Of a DNA stretch of 10,347 bases, positions 1-10,347 are shown piece by piece. Each line of letters starts with the position of its first letter. The stretch's first letter is position 1. Origin of the DNA: a virus (lineage: Duplodnaviria; Heunggongvirae; Uroviricota; Caudoviricetes). The notes below the pieces were generated by a model, which ran no database searches, was not told the origin of the DNA, and worked only from the letters and a program-made list of their open reading frames with translations. Position numbers and translations under genes: made by a program. The stretch lies in IMG/VR virus record IMGVR_UViG_2695420380_000013; one strand, 5' to 3'.

Positions 1-31
1 TACACTAAATCAGTAAGTTGGCAGCATCACC
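1..31 (-). mobile_element. IS1 terminus (IRL end; body of the element lies left of the window)
   Basis: nt 1-31 tacactaaatcagtaagttggcagcatcacc is the reverse complement of the IS1 left inverted repeat (GGTGATGCTGCCAACTTACTGAT...). The same 31-mer recurs at 4097-4127, where it terminates the internal IS1 fragment. Confidence 0.85.
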
Positions 32-117
32 CCGCCACAGAACAATTATTGCTTTTGCCGTTGATGACAATAAAGTTTTTATCGCAGTGTCAGGGCGTGG
101 CGGATATCAAACTTTGG

Positions 118-1200
118 TCATTTTCTCTGGCTGATCTTTACCGGATAACCATCCCGAAGATCAATTAAGTGCTCCGGTTCAGAAGCAAACCATGCATAAG
201 ATCCCCACGCCAATTCTGGTATTGCCTTTTTAAAAGGCAGAGCACTTCTGTCCATAAATGCCGTAAGGAATGCAAGATTTTTCTCGCTGAACCCAGCGTC
301 AATAGCCAAATGAGTGAGAGTAACTTTTCGTTCCCTGTTTATAGGCCCATCTGTCGCAACTACTTCAGTGAAAACTACAAGCATGTCCGAACCCGTTCGG
401 TCCTCTCCCAAATCAATCAAAATAATATCTGGAAGTGCTTTTGAGGCATCAATATTCAGCCCCAATGCTTTTGCCAATACATCATCCTGAGCAACAACTT
501 TATTCCCGGATTCAGACAACCAGAGCACAGTTGGATTCTTAAGAAAATTAGGAGCAAAAACTTCGATGACGGCCTTAGCTATTGTACTTGACGGGCCCGG
601 AGCTAAAGTTCTCTTCTCTCCATTTGGGAAAGTGACGACTACGGCATCAGCAGCAATCACTGCCCCTGATTTCAATAAACGCAACCTAGCAAGAGCGGCT
701 TTGTTCAAATGATTTTCTTGCCAGGAACTTATTGCACTCAGCAGCGAATCTCCTTCAAGCCCGGCATCAAAGAGTGCTGCAAAAGAGCGATTCAAACTGT
801 AACGAGGACGAGAGGATGTGGTGGGTATACCTTTACGCTCAACAATTGCATTGCAAGGTATTAGGCCATTTTTTATAGTTTCATCACGTATTGGCTCACG
901 CGTATTTTCCGCATACCATGCATCAGCAGGCCTTATCTTTTGTTTAGAGAAAGTCATCTTTACCCAGCTTTCTCTGGACGCATCATCAGTAAGAGCAGCC
1001 TGCGAATCTCCCATACTTACAACCTGGCTGGGCCTTATCCATCGCCCCAGCCCCTCAACCGCACCAGCATAAAACATGACAAAAATTGTTTTTGCAGCTA
1101 TTTCCCGAATTAAATATCCACGATTCTCAGTCCCTTCAGGGAAAATTAATTGTAATCTTTCCCGGATAACATTCAATGGGGGAACAACAGGCAGATTCAT
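118..1200 (-). CDS. Candidate Type II restriction endonuclease (360 aa), partner of the upstream methyltransferase; family not established (possibly BsuBI/PstI-like)
   Basis: Long minus-strand ORF whose ATG (1200-1198) overlaps the methyltransferase stop (1199-1197) as ATGA, indicating translational coupling in an M-then-R operon. No ATPase or methyltransferase motifs. AT-rich like the methyltransferase gene. The endonuclease call rests on context; the family guess is from memory of the N-terminal region and is unverified. Confidence 0.55.
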   Translation of the reverse strand: MNLPVVPPLNVIRERLQLIFPEGTENRGYLIREIAAKTIFVMFYAGAVEGLGRWIRPSQVVSMGDSQAALTDDASRESWVKMTFSKQKIRPADAWYAENTREPIRDETIKNGLIPCNAIVERKGIPTTSSRPRYSLNRSFAALFDAGLEGDSLLSAISSWQENHLNKAALARLRLLKSGAVIAADAVVVTFPNGEKRTLAPGPSSTIAKAVIEVFAPNFLKNPTVLWLSESGNKVVAQDDVLAKALGLNIDASKALPDIILIDLGEDRTGSDMLVVFTEVVATDGPINRERKVTLTHLAIDAGFSEKNLAFLTAFMDRSALPFKKAIPELAWGSYAWFASEPEHLIDLRDGYPVKISQRK

Positions 1201-3029
1201 GCAATCATCACTCCATAGAAACCAGCGATAGTTCTCTCAATAATCCGTCTGTGGACGCCAGCATCAATTAACGATTGAATCTCCATCACCTGCTCCAGAG
1301 AAGGCAACGGGATTGAATTCAATTCATAGGCCGAAACAGCAACACTTCCGCTTATACACCTGAACGCCCGATCGACAACATGCGAATTAAGTAGCATATC
1401 AATAACATCAGGGCGAACCGCAGAGAACAATCCGTTTGAATATACAATATTAATATGGTTTTCAACTACTACGCCACCAGTTTCATCTATAAATCCCTGA
1501 GGTAAAATTGCCGCTAAAATCCTTCTGTCCTGTTCCTTCGATGTTGTCCGCTGAACAAGCACACATTCAGATTTTGTCACAAGGAAACCCTGTTGTGGGG
1601 TTATATCGATATAGGGAACATGATTTTTTCTGTCTGCACTAAAACGAAAACCAGCTGAAGTTATTGATTCCGCCCAGACTAATGGGTAGCTATTTTTTCC
1701 TTTCGTCGTACGCAACTGCGACTTAAATCGATTCCAGACTAACTGACCTGTAGAGACTGAGTATCCCAGATCAGCTAAACGCGTAGACATCTGTTTTAAT
1801 ACATTAAGAAAACAGGCATCATCTTTAACGCGTGGCAAAAGCCACGTTGCTCCACCTTTTTCTATATCAACATTACCTATTTTCTCAATTTTTGCTTTGT
1901 TCAACCCCTTAGGGACAAGTGAGGATACCTGGGCCCGAACTTTATGTTCTCCCGCCTTGAATGCTGTCAACATTGTTTCCTGGAGAACATCGTCAAAGAC
2001 CCCATCCCTGTCAGTGACGAAATCAAGGGCATACGGAGTAGTTTTTTCGGTCAAAAGGGTTCGCAGCGCGGTGAAATACTGCCCACCAAGAAAAGAAGTT
2101 GGCGTAAGAAATGCAATAACTCCTGTTTTCTCTTTAACCATGCGAACAGCTAAGTCGGTGAACAATCCATATAGATTTGCATGACCAAATAACGAACGAG
2201 AATATTTTTCTCTCGTTTTAATATCGAGAGTGACACGTCCGTAAGGCGGATTCCCTACCACAAGATCATAACCAGAAAATTTATCTTGCTGAAGCGCATC
2301 AGCAACAATAATTGTATCTTCAGGCAATCTACGTTTTACCTTTACACATAGTGGCATTAGTACAGATTCGAGCAATACCAAACTCATCCAAGCCGCAAAT
2401 GGATCGATTTCTATCCCCTTTAAACGACGACTGATTCTCCTCAACATCCATTCAGGGGAAGACCCCTTGTCTTTTTTTAACATTCGAATGGCTACTGGTG
2501 CCAAAAATGCACCGCCACCACACGCAGGATCAATAACCGATGCATGAGAAAAATCAACACCAGACTTTTCAGCCAGGTCCAAGAGACGCGCTACCAAAGG
2601 TGGGGGGGTATAGTAAGCCCCCAATTCCGAACGGTAAGCGGATGGCAGCATTACCGTATAAATTGACCCAATCAGATATCCAGCGTCCTCCGCCGGAAAT
2701 TGAGCAATAAGCTCACCTGTTCGTTCAGCGAGCTCGCGTGCATCACATGGAATGTCTTCTATGTAAACAGTGTGCGGTACTGCCCTCATTTTAATGCTGC
2801 TTTTTTGCTTTTTTGCAAGGGTATCCCAATATGCAGCTACGATGCTGAAGCAGTATGAGCGGGCATGCATCAACCTTGACTGCCCGGTTTTGTAATTGCC
2901 CGCATAACCTTTGGCCATGGCTTTACAAGTTTGATATCTTTCCAGATTAGAAAACTCATTATCTGTAAAAAAATCAAAATGTTGCACATTCATAATGTAA
3001 AATCCTAATGTATCAAACATGCGGGCCAT
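1197..3029 (-). CDS. N6-adenine-specific DNA methyltransferase, gamma-like motif order (610 aa from the first ATG; an alternative start at 2993 has a better-placed AGGA)
   Basis: Translation contains GAYYTPPPLVARLL (motif X-like), VIDPACGGGAFL (AdoMet-binding motif I) and VVGNPPYGR (catalytic NPPY motif IV), followed by a ~350-aa C-terminal region consistent with a target-recognition domain. Single uninterrupted ORF. Confidence 0.9.
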   Translation of the reverse strand: MARMFDTLGFYIMNVQHFDFFTDNEFSNLERYQTCKAMAKGYAGNYKTGQSRLMHARSYCFSIVAAYWDTLAKKQKSSIKMRAVPHTVYIEDIPCDARELAERTGELIAQFPAEDAGYLIGSIYTVMLPSAYRSELGAYYTPPPLVARLLDLAEKSGVDFSHASVIDPACGGGAFLAPVAIRMLKKDKGSSPEWMLRRISRRLKGIEIDPFAAWMSLVLLESVLMPLCVKVKRRLPEDTIIVADALQQDKFSGYDLVVGNPPYGRVTLDIKTREKYSRSLFGHANLYGLFTDLAVRMVKEKTGVIAFLTPTSFLGGQYFTALRTLLTEKTTPYALDFVTDRDGVFDDVLQETMLTAFKAGEHKVRAQVSSLVPKGLNKAKIEKIGNVDIEKGGATWLLPRVKDDACFLNVLKQMSTRLADLGYSVSTGQLVWNRFKSQLRTTKGKNSYPLVWAESITSAGFRFSADRKNHVPYIDITPQQGFLVTKSECVLVQRTTSKEQDRRILAAILPQGFIDETGGVVVENHINIVYSNGLFSAVRPDVIDMLLNSHVVDRAFRCISGSVAVSAYELNSIPLPSLEQVMEIQSLIDAGVHRRIIERTIAGFYGVMIA

Positions 3030-3089
3030 AACATCTCATGGTGGCGCATAGCAAACTGGCCCGAAGAATATCACGCACCAAGTCGATCT

Positions 3090-3103
3090 CATAACCCGTT
3101 ATG
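3090..3103. promoter_or_regulatory. Perfect 6-2-6 palindrome CATAAC-CC-GTTATG about 60 bp upstream of the methyltransferase start; candidate operator
   Basis: Read directly from the sequence (cataacccgttatg). Position between the upstream small ORF and the methyltransferase start codon. No recognisable sigma70 -35/-10 pair could be placed confidently nearby. Confidence 0.25.
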
Positions 3104-3243
3104 ACAATAAATCTTTGTAGCTGAACTCACTTGGTGATTTGTCAATCATTCCTGGCCTCCAGTTCGTCCTGAATCTCTTTATCGAGTTCACCGTATTTGT
3201 TAGTCCTCATCACTCACGACTTGACTTCCAGAAATAACCTTGA

Positions 3244-3600
3244 TTATTCGGGGCTATATTTTGTCACCCTGCGTATCCGCGCTTTCGCATTACGCTCAAT
3301 CTGGATTAGCTTTTCTATATTTTTTCGCCTTTCCCGCTCCTCCTGGCGCAAGAGCCTTACATCATCTGCCAGTCTGGTTTCTCTTTTCGCCACAGAGAGC
3401 ATCCAGTCAAATGGCTCCACAACTGCACCGCAAATTTTACAGCGGACCTGACGCTCTTTTTCGTCAACCCGGACAGAGGCGTGATGGCAATATGGTCTTT
3501 CCGATGGCTCATAAAGAAAATTAACCTGATTACGAGGGTTATCCTCTTTTACCGGAAATAAAACAATATTGCTTAACTCATCTTCTGGTTTTATTTCCAT
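3244..3600 (-). CDS. Hypothetical small protein (119 aa) with a zinc-ribbon-like CHH...CxxC motif and a basic coiled-coil-like C-terminus
   Basis: ATG at 3600 is preceded by a strong Shine-Dalgarno (AAGGAGAGGAGC then ATG). Translation MEIKPEDEL...YCHHASVRVDEKERQVRCKICGAVV...RLLRQEERERRKNIEKLIQIERNAKARIRR. Same strand as, and directly upstream of, the methyltransferase. The ORF track extends it to 3657, but that start lacks an RBS. Confidence 0.6.
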   Translation of the reverse strand: MEIKPEDELSNIVLFPVKEDNPRNQVNFLYEPSERPYCHHASVRVDEKERQVRCKICGAVVEPFDWMLSVAKRETRLADDVRLLRQEERERRKNIEKLIQIERNAKARIRRVTKYSPE

Positions 3601-3657
3601 GCTCCTCTCCTTTGATGCGAATGCCAGCGGTAATTGAAGCCTGATAGCTAATTTCAC

Positions 3658-3780
3658 TCACAGTACCGCCTCCTGAAAATCACCCTGATAGAAAGCCGGT
3701 ACACGCTGCATAACTTCACTCTTCCGGCACTCGCGACAGATTATGTTCTGATGTCTGTCGTAGCGGCGTATTTCTCCGTC
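3658..3780 (-). pseudogene. 3' remnant of a paralog of the hypothetical gene at 4200-4771, cut off at the N-run/IS1 junction
   Basis: Encodes DGEIRRYDRHQNIICRECRKSEVMQRVPAFYQGDFQEAVL, which matches the C-terminus of the 4200-4538 ORF (DGEIRRYDRRQNIICSECRKSEAMQRVLAFYQGNFQKVLL). The DNA at 3658-3780 aligns with 4200-4322 at roughly 85-90 percent identity. The upstream part is replaced by NNNNNNNN plus IS1 interior sequence. Confidence 0.6.
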
Positions 3781-3788
3781 NNNNNNNN
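3781..3788. other. Run of 8 N (unresolved bases or scaffold join) exactly at the junction between the phage-gene remnant and IS1 interior
   Basis: Literal n characters in the sequence. Confidence 0.95.
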
Positions 3789-4127
3789 GCCAGCGCTGGC
3801 GCGATTTAGCCCCGACATAGCCCCACTGTTCGTCCATTTCCGCGCAGACGATGACGTCACTGCCCGGCTGTATGCGCGAGGTTACCGACTGCGGCCTGAG
3901 TTTTTTAAGTGACGTAAAATCGTGTTGAGGCCAACGCCCATAATGCGTGCAGTTGCCATGTTTTACGGCAGTGAGAGCAGAGATAGCGCTGATGTCCGGC
4001 AGTGCTTTTGCCGTTACGCACCACCCCGTCAGTAGCTGAACAGGAGGGACAGCTGATAGAAACAGAAGCCACTGGAGCACCTCAAAAACACCATCATACA
4101 CTAAATCAGTAAGTTGGCAGCATCACC
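3789..4127 (-). mobile_element. IS1 fragment: IRL end plus insA region and 5' part of insB; truncated on the insB/IRR side, with an apparent internal deletion inside insA
   Basis: Ends with the IS1 IRL reverse complement at 4097-4127. The minus-strand translation contains the InsA N-terminus ([41 protein letters not shown]) and InsB residues ([52 protein letters not shown]). Relative to IS1 as I recall it, about 85 bp between ...GGCAACTGCA and CGCATTATGGGCG... are missing, which would frameshift insA. Only about 339 of 768 bp are present. Confidence 0.85.
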
Positions 4128-4199
4128 ACAGTGCTGAACTTAATTATTCAGATTTTGGATTATGCTTTCTCTTCACGAAGTTCCGATTGTTAATTTGGC

Positions 4200-4771
4200 T
4201 CACAACAGCACCTTCTGAAAATTACCCTGATAGAAAGCCAGTACACGCTGCATAGCTTCGCTCTTCCGGCACTCGCTACAGATTATGTTTTGACGCCTGT
4301 CGTAGCGGCGTATTTCTCCGTCTGGTAATGACCAGATAAGGTCAGGATCAACCACAGATGGTTTCTTCAGATTTGCCCTTGAGAGTTTTTTGCGGGCGTT
4401 TTGCCAGTCCTTACGCGCCTGTTCAGACGGGAATAACCCGTAACCAGAGTTGTATACATCGCCACTGGCAACCAGCTCTCTGGCGAGAACACTCATCAGA
4501 TATCTTGTCGCACCTGTCTTGGCTTCCAGTTGCCGCAACGTCTCGCGACCGCTCAGACGTACAAGTTCAACAACCTGCCCTTNNNNNNNNNNNNNNAGTT
4601 GTATACATCCCCACTGGCAACCAGCTCTCTGGCGAGAACGCTTATTAAATATCTTGTCGCCCCGGTTTTAGCTTCCAGTTGTCGTAACGTCTCGCGCCCA
4701 CTCTGGCGTACGAGTTCAACAACCTGCCCCTTAATTTTTTCCCGCTCTTCCTGTGTAAATACTTTTGCCAT
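4200..4771 (-). CDS. Hypothetical phage protein (gene X), reading frame interrupted by a diverged tandem duplication and a 14-N run
   Basis: ATG at 4771 (MAKVFTQEEREKIKGQVVELVRQSGRETLRQLEAKTGATRYLISVLARELVASGDVYN...), then the N-run, then a second copy of the same segment (RQLEAKTGATRYLMSVLARELVASGDVYNSGYGLFPSEQARKDW...NFQKVLL) ending at 4200. If the duplication were collapsed, a continuous protein of about 148 aa would result. No family recognised. Confidence 0.45.
4448..4732. repeat. Tandem duplication of a ~135-bp segment (4448-4582 and 4597-4732), copies roughly 88 percent identical, separated by 14 N
   Basis: Both units begin agttgtatacatc(g/c)ccactggcaaccagctctctggcgagaac and end ...gttcaacaacctgccc(c)tt. 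About 16 scattered mismatches, so not a simple read-level duplication. Confidence 0.75.
4583..4596. other. Run of 14 N at the junction of the two tandem repeat units
   Basis: Literal n characters. Confidence 0.95.
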
Positions 4772-4786
4772 AAGCGCCCCCGGCAA

Positions 4787-5512
4787 TCACTTTTCCGACA
4801 CAATACGACCGGAGGAATCGACAATCTGTCGAACAATATCCCGGTGCTTGTTCAGCTCCCGCAACGCGGCGCAGACACGCTCCCACTTCTGGACATGACT
4901 TTTCGCCCGACGCAGTTCGCGGTTTGCCATATGCAGCGATGGTAAAACCAGGTCATCCGCTTGCGTTTCGGTGAACGATGGCAACGACTGCACAATGTCC
5001 GCCACAGTTTCTGTTTTAATTTCTTCCTGTGTTGCAGCTTCCTGTACCGGTAACGCAACACCTGCTGGCTGAGGAAAGACTTTACCATCCGTTTCCGCTA
5101 TGGATGCGGCTTTCGGCTCTGCCGGTAAATCAGCGCCCGGTATGCAGTACCGAAATTTACCGCCCTGATTCACGCGAATCAGACGCCCTTTGCTGATTGC
5201 CATGGCCAGCGATGAATTCGCCCGGCGGGAGGTAATCCCGAACATCAGTGCCAGCTCATCCGCCGTTTGTGGGCCATGTTGTTCAATCGCCTCAGTCAGC
5301 ATTTGCGCTGTCACTTTCGGTACCGGTGACACTGGTTCACTTTCACCAGCCTGAATCAGCCACCACATCGAACCCTTGTTATCCGCTTCACCACGGCGCT
5401 TCAGTTTCCACAGTTCGTTGACCGCATCTTCACGGCTGATTCCAAGGCGGGACGCCACCACATGTGAAGAGGCTCTTTTCAGTGCTTTCAGTGCGTCAAA
5501 TACAGTTTCCAT
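4787..5512 (-). CDS. Prophage protein (241 aa), DUF1627/YdaW-like, immediately downstream of the DnaC-like gene
   Basis: ATG at 5512 with GGAGG 8 nt upstream. Translation [41 protein letters not shown]... with a second similar helix-rich segment ([28 protein letters not shown]). Position after the DnaC-like gene matches Rac-like prophages. Family assignment is from memory and not verified. Confidence 0.55.
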
Positions 5513-5533
5513 TAAAACATCCTCCAACAAAAA

Positions 5534-5824
5534 TTACTTCACAACTCCCGGAAAGCTGACATTTGAACGCCAGCTATCCCAGTTAAACGTCACCCACCGA
5601 CAACCGTTCATGGTCATGCGGTCCATAATCCTCTCACCAAGAAGCGTGCTCATTGCGGCATGATTCAGGTTTGTTAACATCCCGACACTGCACAGTGATG
5701 CTGTCCGGCGATCAATTATCTGGTGCAATACCACCTGCTCGTTTTTCGTCTCCCGCTGAATGCCTATTTCATCCAGGACCAGCAAATCAACCCCGCAAAG
5801 CTCCTGTAAAAATTTTTCACCGGA
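5534..5824 (-). CDS. DnaC-like replicative helicase loader, C-terminal part only (5' portion lies in the 593-N run)
   Basis: Translation ...LLVLDEIGIQRETKNEQVVLHQIIDRRTASLCSVGMLTNLNHAAMSTLLGERIMDRMTMNGCRWVTFNWDSWRSNVSF closely parallels the E. coli DnaC C-terminus (Walker B LLVIDEIG, NQIVDRR, GMLTNSN, LGERVMDRM, FNWDSYR). Stop at 5534-5536. Confidence 0.85.
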   Translation of the reverse strand, partial: SGEKFLQELCGVDLLVLDEIGIQRETKNEQVVLHQIIDRRTASLCSVGMLTNLNHAAMSTLLGERIMDRMTMNGCRWVTFNWDSWRSNVSFPGVVK

Positions 5825-6417
5825 NNNNNNNNNNNNNNNNNNNNNNNNNNNNNNNNNNNNNNNNNNNNNNNNNNNNNNNNNNNNNNNNNNNNNNNNNNNN
5901 NNNNNNNNNNNNNNNNNNNNNNNNNNNNNNNNNNNNNNNNNNNNNNNNNNNNNNNNNNNNNNNNNNNNNNNNNNNNNNNNNNNNNNNNNNNNNNNNNNNN
6001 NNNNNNNNNNNNNNNNNNNNNNNNNNNNNNNNNNNNNNNNNNNNNNNNNNNNNNNNNNNNNNNNNNNNNNNNNNNNNNNNNNNNNNNNNNNNNNNNNNNN
6101 NNNNNNNNNNNNNNNNNNNNNNNNNNNNNNNNNNNNNNNNNNNNNNNNNNNNNNNNNNNNNNNNNNNNNNNNNNNNNNNNNNNNNNNNNNNNNNNNNNNN
6201 NNNNNNNNNNNNNNNNNNNNNNNNNNNNNNNNNNNNNNNNNNNNNNNNNNNNNNNNNNNNNNNNNNNNNNNNNNNNNNNNNNNNNNNNNNNNNNNNNNNN
6301 NNNNNNNNNNNNNNNNNNNNNNNNNNNNNNNNNNNNNNNNNNNNNNNNNNNNNNNNNNNNNNNNNNNNNNNNNNNNNNNNNNNNNNNNNNNNNNNNNNNN
6401 NNNNNNNNNNNNNNNNN
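5825..6417. other. Run of 593 N (gap or masked segment) covering the 5' part of the DnaC-like gene
   Basis: Literal n characters. ORF-track entries crossing it are artefacts of translating N as X. Confidence 0.95.
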
Positions 6418-6560
6418 AGAAATATGATTCACACAACGCTGGTTGTTCGTGCCGCTTACCGGGAGCAACCAGGGGTTTTCAAAATTCCGGTCCGGCCCAA
6501 AAAACGTCGTCGCTCGCTGAACAAATTCCGTTCCCGCTTTCCCGGTCGCCGCCAGGTATC

Positions 6561-6910
6561 NNNNNNNNNNNNNNNNNNNNNNNNNNNNNNNNNNNNNNNN
6601 NNNNNNNNNNNNNNNNNNNNNNNNNNNNNNNNNNNNNNNNNNNNNNNNNNNNNNNNNNNNNNNNNNNNNNNNNNNNNNNNNNNNNNNNNNNNNNNNNNNN
6701 NNNNNNNNNNNNNNNNNNNNNNNNNNNNNNNNNNNNNNNNNNNNNNNNNNNNNNNNNNNNNNNNNNNNNNNNNNNNNNNNNNNNNNNNNNNNNNNNNNNN
6801 NNNNNNNNNNNNNNNNNNNNNNNNNNNNNNNNNNNNNNNNNNNNNNNNNNNNNNNNNNNNNNNNNNNNNNNNNNNNNNNNNNNNNNNNNNNNNNNNNNNN
6901 NNNNNNNNNN
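6561..6910. other. Run of 350 N (gap or masked segment) covering the 3' part of the O-like replication gene
   Basis: Literal n characters. The 143-bp island at 6418-6560 between the two runs is open in two minus-strand frames, so the true reading frame and gene boundary cannot be decided. Confidence 0.95.
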
Positions 6911-7510
6911 ATCGGCTTTCAGCGCATACGCTGAATCGGCTTCCGGTGTCGAGCCTGCTGGCTGACCAGGATTGACGGTCTGAACATCCCCTGCCTGGTT
7001 CGTGGCGTTTTTTACGCCATGGACCATAGTGTTTTGATCTTCTTTATCTGTATCTTTATCTGTATCTGTCGTGACTCGTCGTGACATGTGCGTGACATTT
7101 CGTGACGCGCCGTGACAATCGCCATTTTGTTCCCGCTTTCTTTCCCTCTCTCGCTGCGCCCTCTTGCGCTCTGCAGGAGATTTTGCGGTTTGCGAAATAT
7201 TGCCGTTGTCCTCTTTAAGCACCTGGCGTTTTTCCCATCCAGTGATTAAATCACCATCAAGTACCCGCCCCTGCATCGTCTGCAAAATTGAATCAATTAC
7301 CTCTTCTGTCACGTCGAGCGCACTTGCCAAATCTTCTGTCGTGACATCAATGTGACCTCGCGTGACATTTCGTGACGCGCTCACCAGGAGGTGGATATAC
7401 ACTGCCATCACTGTTGCAATTGGCTGCCCTGACACCCTGGCAATTGTTCGCCACTTAGGGTCATTTGGCATGTCATGCCATAATCTGAGCCAGGCGTTAG
7501 CCATACTCAC
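6911..7510 (-). CDS. Lambdoid replication initiation protein (O-like replisome organizer), N-terminal part; 3' end unresolved in the N-run
   Basis: Minus-strand ORF starting GTG 7510 or ATG 7504 (MANAWLRLWHDMPNDPKWRTIARVSGQPIATVMAVYIHLLVSASRNVTRGHIDVTTEDLASALDVTEEVIDSILQ...). Sits directly upstream of the DnaC-like gene and downstream of the cro-like/YdaT-like genes. Contains iteron-like DNA repeats that encode a repetitive acidic linker (VTTDTDKDTDKED), as in lambda O. Confidence 0.65.
7041..7116. repeat. Iteron-like repeat cluster inside the O-like gene: 12-bp tandem tctttatctgta x2, then five CGTGAC hexamers; candidate phage replication origin
   Basis: Direct reading: tctttatctgtatctttatctgta at 7041-7064, and cgtgac at 7070, 7080, 7091, 7101 and 7111. 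The 21-mer gcgtgacatttcgtgacgcgc at 7090-7110 is repeated exactly at 7360-7380. AT-rich tract immediately adjacent (7031-7068). Confidence 0.5.
7340..7380. repeat. Second CGTGAC/TGTGAC hexamer cluster, including an exact 21-bp copy of 7090-7110
   Basis: cgtgac at 7340, tgtgac at 7351, cgtgac at 7361 and 7371. The 21-mer gcgtgacatttcgtgacgcgc at 7360-7380 is identical to 7090-7110. Lies in the 5' part of the O-like gene (the encoded ASRNVT peptide is repeated too). Confidence 0.45.
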
Positions 7511-10317: not shown

Positions 10318-10347
10318 GGTAATGACTCCAACTTATTGATAGTGTTT
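10318..10347 (-). mobile_element. IS1 terminus (IRR end; body of the element lies right of the window)
   Basis: nt 10318-10347 ggtaatgactccaacttattgatagtgttt is the IS1 right inverted repeat (GGTAATGACTCCAACTTATTGAT...). Same orientation as the IS1 terminus at 1-31 and the internal fragment. Confidence 0.85.

Follow-up and report, generated by a model that had tools for sequence, protein, structure and literature searches.

The insertion sequence IS1, known in Shigella and E. coli from IS1A-type copies of 768 bp, is the described element that the internal IS1 piece of the present sequence most closely resembles. S. sonnei copies match this piece at 100% over its 339 nt, the IRL terminus and the start of insA among them; the piece differs from those copies in lacking nt 181-265 and everything past nt 424, with most of insB′ and IRR. 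As written, this copy is neither complete nor functional, whereas the corresponding copy is complete in other assemblies. Repeat-induced mis-scaffolding, as encountered in IS-rich Shigella drafts, is the closest counterpart of its surroundings: contig ends lie at the boundaries of IS1, IS600 or prophage paralogs, N runs of variable length serve as estimates of gap size, a small contig related to the repeats has been interleaved into a gap, and the complete genomes are colinear across it. The locus departs from this pattern only in the internal 85-bp loss of the inserted contig, which falls at a 10-nt repeat. In its default setting, the gap closer GapFiller regards a gap as closed once the two extensions share an overlap of 10 nt or more; closure is tested after each added base, and edges are trimmed by 10 nt (PMC3446322). 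The junction resembles a false closure of the GapFiller type (PMC3446322) in that it keeps exactly one copy of the 10-nt repeat and in that it lies in a stretch necessarily built by extension through a high-copy repeat, but the match to the default setting is circumstantial. Type II restriction-modification systems carried as morons by lambdoid prophages, between the replication genes and Q, are the relevant comparison for the neighbouring cassette, which occupies the same stretch in two E. coli prophages; the S. sonnei prophage differs from these in that an IS1 within the ParE gene cuts it off just past the endonuclease.

The window, by which we mean the whole stretch of 10,347 nucleotides that was analysed (IMG/VR record IMGVR_UViG_2695420380_000013), carries IS1 termini at both ends and therefore appears to be one entire short-read draft scaffold of a Shigella sonnei-type genome, with IS1 copies at both limits (Table 1). 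The position of the left edge is occupied in complete S. sonnei genomes by a full IS1 (L008 9065 onward), which divides the prophage remnant from the chromosomal genes ydfI, ydfZ, ydfH and ydfG.

Table 1. Coordinates of the features discussed, given in the window unless a locus is named.
Feature	Position	Strand	Remarks
IS1 terminal 31 nt (IRL end), left scaffold edge	1..31	-	identical to 4097-4127
Cassette and its homologues	118-3029; L016 9019-11930; L017 7019-9930		
BsuBI/PstI-family endonuclease	118-1200	-	Pfam PF06616/PF17728 on identical protein
N6-adenine methyltransferase	1197-3029	-	Pfam PF02384/PF07669 on identical protein
118-aa hypothetical prophage gene, between DUF977 and methyltransferase	3244..3600	-	called in L004-L008; hypothetical protein in L002, L003, L016
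DUF977 allele 1, last 123 nt including stop	3658..3780	-	end of contig A
8-N scaffold gap	3781..3788		false adjacency; flanks from different loci
IS1 nt 424 to 1 without nt 181-265	3789..4127	-	339 bp; IRL terminus at 4127
Deletion junction, one retained 10-mer	3948..3957	-	GGCAACTGCA (TGCAGTTGCC on + strand)
72-bp spacer, IS1 to paralogous DUF977 (second locus)	4128..4199		100% identical to L012, L014, L015
DUF977 allele 2 (paralog), nt 41-423	4200..4582	-	right end of misplaced contig B
14-N scaffold gap	4583..4596		second false adjacency
DUF977 allele 1, first 175 nt	4597..4771	-	start of contig C
593-N run	5825-6417		
350-N run	6561-6910		
IS1 first 30 nt (IRR end), right scaffold edge	10318..10347	+	

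The locus in finished genomes shows no IS1 at this place. An exact-protein look-up with the 610-aa methyltransferase retrieved complete S. sonnei chromosomes, including Ss046 (CP000038), and thousands of draft contigs; the comparison set consisted of five complete chromosomes (L004-L008), standing for 28 contigs of the same neighbourhood, and the drafts L009 and L010. The gene order in the five chromosome groups runs from ParE/PaaA2 through cI-like, YdaT, the replication initiator, DnaC-like and DUF1627, and continues with DUF977, the 118-aa gene, the methyltransferase, the BsuBI/PstI-family endonuclease, IS1 and the chromosomal ydf genes. DUF977 is intact (140 aa) between DUF1627 and the 118-aa gene in all five and in both drafts. 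When aligned by BLAST, window 90-3780 equals L008 8940-5250 at 99.97% identity and window 4597-5824 equals L008 5124-3897 at 100%; the two blocks are just 125 bp apart in L008, a distance that is the middle of its DUF977 gene (4950-5372), and no IS1 lies between them. The scaffold places 8 + 794 + 14 = 816 positions where the finished genomes have 125. Judged from other strains and from the internal logic of the sequence, the true locus of this strain would read IS1, ParE remnant, endonuclease, methyltransferase, 118-aa gene, intact DUF977, DUF1627 and replication genes.

The piece enclosed by the two short N runs (3789-4582) has a documented home elsewhere. The 112-aa ORF that can be read in the paralog of the window is on record in four assemblies. 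In L012 (AKND01000032.1, a 133-kb contig) and L013 (ADUU01000022.1), which we take from their accession prefixes to be S. sonnei drafts, an IS600, a 5′-truncated DUF977, 72 bp and a full 768-bp IS1 follow one another. Window 3948-4582 is 100% identical to L012 8591-7957 over 635 bp, window 3789-3957 is 100% identical to L012 8835-8667, and the IS600 of this home locus is 99.9% identical to annotated copies. In two further short-read drafts (L014 and L015) the same island stands alone as an orphan contig, 625 or 481 bp long, and the middle contig of the window ends 7-8 nt before the IS600 that cuts DUF977 in L012 and L014. Only 27 contigs, from S. boydii and E. coli and none of them named S. 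sonnei, carry the guessed full-length paralog protein, and this rarity suggested that S. sonnei carries a truncated copy; the home locus escaped a homologue search with the DUF977 paralog, in which all hits were cluster representatives of ≤96% identity. In E. coli ATCC 25922 the insertion site of the L012 IS1 is uninterrupted, and the sequence 4128-4582 is 99.6% identical to that genome (L003 6256 onward, without the inserted IS1). Of a possible 8-9 bp target-site duplication, a single flank is contained in the window, and the two flanks in L012, CAGCACTGT and CGGCACTGT, match at 8 of 9 positions. The IRL-side junction at 4127/4128 reads as an ordinary simple IS1 insertion, one that would belong to the other locus. 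The two flanks of the 8-N run, the left one up to 3780 and the right one at 3789-4582, accordingly come from different loci in other S. sonnei assemblies, a situation that the initial annotation had itself named as one that would speak against its reading.

The two DUF977 copies explain the gene fragment seen across the 8 N, which had been described as the 3′ remnant of a paralog of a "gene X". A 3′ end is indeed present there, and gene X is DUF977; the word remnant has to be corrected, since the gene to which this 3′ end belongs also has its 5′ 175 nt in the window, at 4597-4771. The segments 3658-3780 and 4200-4322 are 87.7% identical, the second DUF977 (4128-4582) as a whole is 90.5% identical to the DUF977 of this locus, and the flanks of the 14-N run, 4448-4580 and 4597-4729, represent the same gene segment from the two paralogs, with 88% identity. 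Contig A ends at the first allele-discriminating SNP that follows a 26-nt run of identity with the paralog, and the missing 125 bp are the stretch in which the paralogs are most similar (6 differences, ~95% identity). An exact look-up of the chimeric ORF of 147 aa that spans the N run found no record of it.

These comparisons make it very probable that the IS1 piece is a misplaced contig from another locus and that the scaffold reflects an assembly artefact, with no rearrangement. The assembler would have failed on the middle 125 bp of DUF977, which is ~95% identical to the second chromosomal copy, a degree of similarity at which a short-read graph would become tangled. The second copy, on a ~460-bp island between IS600 and a full-length IS1, would have ended up as a tiny orphan contig, and the scaffolder may then have placed this island together with some IS1 inside the 125-bp gap, because the island shares sequence with both gap edges, filling the joins with runs of 8 and 14 N. 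Several marks of a misplaced contig are present, namely joins through N runs of wrong lengths, flanks that are colinear and close together in finished genomes, and a documented home locus elsewhere, and all contig ends coincide with repeat boundaries of a prophage paralog, IS1 or IS600.

Two other explanations of the placement have to be weighed against the misplaced contig. If the scaffold were correct, an IS1-associated event would have inserted a partial IS1 and a part of the second DUF977 into the DUF977 on the cassette side; the scaffolder did link these contigs, presumably on some read-pair evidence, and IS1 is very active in Shigella. Such an origin is nevertheless highly improbable, for it requires several unrelated events. 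The new junction of an IS1-mediated adjacent deletion, inversion or cointegrate falls exactly at a terminus of the element; the disputed junction lies at IS1 nt 424, across 8 N, which is not a terminus of IS1, and the join is therefore not a product of IS1 transposition. Exactly the 125 bp most alike between the paralogs would have to be lost, diverged copies would have to undergo a 133-bp partial tandem duplication, which is impossible by homologous recombination, and allele 2 would have to end 7-8 nt from the position of IS600 in other genomes; that every contig end sits at a repeat boundary also argues against it, and the arrangement occurs in none of ~30 other S. sonnei contigs. Of the two possibilities between which the initial annotation had hesitated, a scaffolding join is thus strongly supported, and an IS1-mediated rearrangement is not. 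Some collections do mask stretches of sequence as N, and the N runs could in principle be masks of the database provider over real sequence with truly adjacent flanks, but this has next to no likelihood, given that the lengths do not fit. By BLAST against complete S. sonnei, the run of 593 N corresponds to 501 real bp and that of 350 N to 289 real bp, and 8 + 794 + 14 positions face 125; the flanks of the 14-N run, moreover, overlap as paralogs. As their lengths differ from the true distances, the N runs are gap-size estimates, and neither masks nor measured sequence.

The IS1 piece itself matches in every detail what had been read from the sequence without a reference. Only the IRL-proximal part of IS1 is present, its length of 339 bp agreeing with the earlier estimate, and the proposed deletion of about 85 bp in insA proved, on alignment to a reference IS1, to be exactly 85 bp (IS1 nt 181-265). 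The fragment consists of IS1 nt 1-180 and nt 266-424 and is 100% identical to the 768-bp IS1 of the S. sonnei plasmid pSS_046 and to that of L012; in the alignment to the pSS_046 copy this takes the form of two 100% blocks, nt 1-180 and nt 256-424, with a 10-nt overlap. The IRL GGTGATGCTGCCAACTTACTGAT is matched exactly at window 4127-4105 on the minus strand, and IRR, expected ~768 bp away, is absent, the fragment ending at nt 424 beside the N run and within the insB′ part, in agreement with the earlier view that the other end stops inside insB. Neither of the reading frames that together, through the A6C frameshift site, give the InsAB′ transposase is intact, as insB′ is cut at nt 424 and insA is shifted after codon 42, which upholds the predicted frameshift and leaves a 55-aa product. 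The missing 85 bp are flanked by the 10-mer GGCAACTGCA, of which IS1 has exactly two copies (nt 171 and nt 256).

The same IS1 copy is intact in L012, where the 85 bp are present (window 3789-4127 against L012 8412-8835), and also in L013. The search for the deletion junction used a 44-mer, each half of which is shorter than the 28-nt seed length, so that ordinary IS1 cannot seed a match; a 70-mer had been uninformative, its ranking being filled by ordinary IS1 copies that align to it in two joined pieces. A full match to the 44-mer was found neither among 5,426 complete E. coli genomes, with ~70,000 IS1 places, nor among 72,556 plasmids, nor among the species representatives of GTDB, and an exact look-up of the 55-aa truncated InsA among the gene products of the collection found none on record. 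We consider it likely that the 85-bp loss is an assembly or gap-closing artefact and not a mutation. The outer ends of the scaffold carry only 30-31 nt of IS1, against 339 nt at the internal end, and the extra IS1 was therefore probably added after the primary assembly, most likely through read-walking in gap closure; the 85 bp would then most likely have been lost by a false closure on the sole repeated 10-mer in that part of IS1. The full stepwise path to an N-flanked island with an internal 10-nt closure could not be reconstructed, and we infer the history of the gap closer, like the other software steps, around a colinearity, a second locus and a junction uniqueness that were demonstrated.

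Slippage is well known to delete sequence in nature between direct repeats of this kind, 10 bp long and 85 bp apart, and the placement could be artefactual while the deletion is genuine, having arisen by slippage between the GGCAACTGCA repeats in the IS1 beside the truncated DUF977 paralog. The end-points of the deletion are the only two copies of the 10-bp direct repeat, which is the classical signature of slippage, and the rest of the sequence on both sides is perfect IS1. We regard a genuine deletion as unlikely, though its probability is not negligible. It has to contend with the intact state of the same IS1 copy in L012 and L013 and with a junction that was not seen among the ~70,000 IS1 places of complete E. 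coli, the plasmids and the GTDB representatives. A short-read assembler is normally unable to read 180 nt of a high-copy IS from its flank, and this, taken with the 30-31 nt of IS1 at the scaffold ends, indicates that the stretch was built by a later, less reliable step. An overlap of 10 nt is the default closure rule of a common gap closer (PMC3446322), and the same scaffold has a second unique loss, of 68 bp, near an IS1 end. Were slippage the cause, the window would hold a defective IS1 with a frameshifted insA that had also lost the sole CTGCAG (PstI-type) site of the element, and its placement beside the cassette would still be an artefact; that a real slippage deletion removed CTGCAG in a genome with a BsuBI/PstI-family restriction-modification system is doubtful. 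Intact IS1 has its single CTGCAG (PstI/BsuBI-type) at nt 176, the deletion junction turns it into CTGCAC, and the whole window contains one CTGCAG, at 7171. The loss of this site beside the cassette of a putative BsuBI/PstI-family endonuclease is probably a coincidence.

The initial annotation had made the membership of the restriction-modification cassette in this prophage depend on the nature of the IS1 join. This dependence does not hold, for complete S. sonnei genomes read from the cassette to the replication genes without interruption. Nor was the cassette put beside the prophage by IS1, as it has the same position in prophages of two complete E. coli genomes, FDAARGOS_943 (L016) and VL7S7 (L017), with 99.0-99.4% identity and with both cassette proteins named by RefSeq. 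In both genomes the 118-aa gene immediately precedes the cassette, with ParDE, DUF968, RusA and Q further downstream; DUF977 adjoins the 118-aa gene in FDAARGOS_943 and is two genes further away in VL7S7. The FDAARGOS_943 prophage extends from integrase, excisionase and exonuclease through holin, lysozyme, terminase and portal genes, and in VL7S7, within the stretch retrieved, the late region ends at a holin gene that abuts IS911. The IS1 that cuts the S. sonnei prophage does so inside the ParE gene, window 32-87 being equivalent to L016 8867-8922 within ParE. As the cassette stands beside the same genes in E. coli lambdoid prophages, it belongs to the prophage, and on this comparative evidence it is a genuine cargo pair of this lambdoid prophage lineage, whichever way the IS1 join is read. 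The type II pair is carried between the replication genes and Q of lambdoid prophages, beside the ParDE toxin-antitoxin genes. It was found in 2 of the 5,426 complete E. coli genomes, against thousands of S. sonnei assemblies (3,929 blocks in the index).

The main import of these results is one of annotation hygiene. Taken at face value, the scaffold would lead a reader to an IS1-mediated rearrangement, a defective variant of IS1 and a pair of DUF977 pseudogenes, none of which the organism is likely to contain. It illustrates that small islands between IS elements, if they carry paralogous sequence in common with a gap, can be interleaved into the scaffolds of IS-rich genomes. The question of whether the cassette belongs to the prophage is settled: it does, and IS1 did not bring it there.

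Several minor features of the window and its relatives deserve mention. At window 85-90, 68 bp are missing that all ten other assemblies in the comparison have, namely complete and draft genomes of S. sonnei together with FDAARGOS_943 and VL7S7 of E. coli; they comprise the 3′ end of the ParE-toxin gene remnant and 12 bp. The junction, which had no match in a scan of the GTDB representative genomes, contains two unmatched bases (TG) and lies ~56 nt from the IS1 end, and the loss could be due to an error at the contig edge or to a true deletion specific to this strain. The long runs of 593 and 350 N lie within the DnaC-like and replication-initiator genes and leave a 143-bp island (6418-6560) between them, presumably a further case of prophage-paralog collapse. 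The closest paralog to 4200-4582, in E. coli ATCC 25922 (L003 6327-6749), has an internal stop, CAA to TAA; the copy in the window is open at this site, yet it is truncated by IS600 at its home locus. E. coli RM9088 was considered as a precedent for an IS1 near the same genes and set aside, as its IS1 occupies a different site, downstream of the 118-aa gene. In this genome, a related prophage carries an independent full IS1 (L002 3428-4125), 44 bp downstream of the homologue of the 118-aa gene, which suggests that the region is a recurrent target of IS1, the RM9088 site being unlike any in the window.
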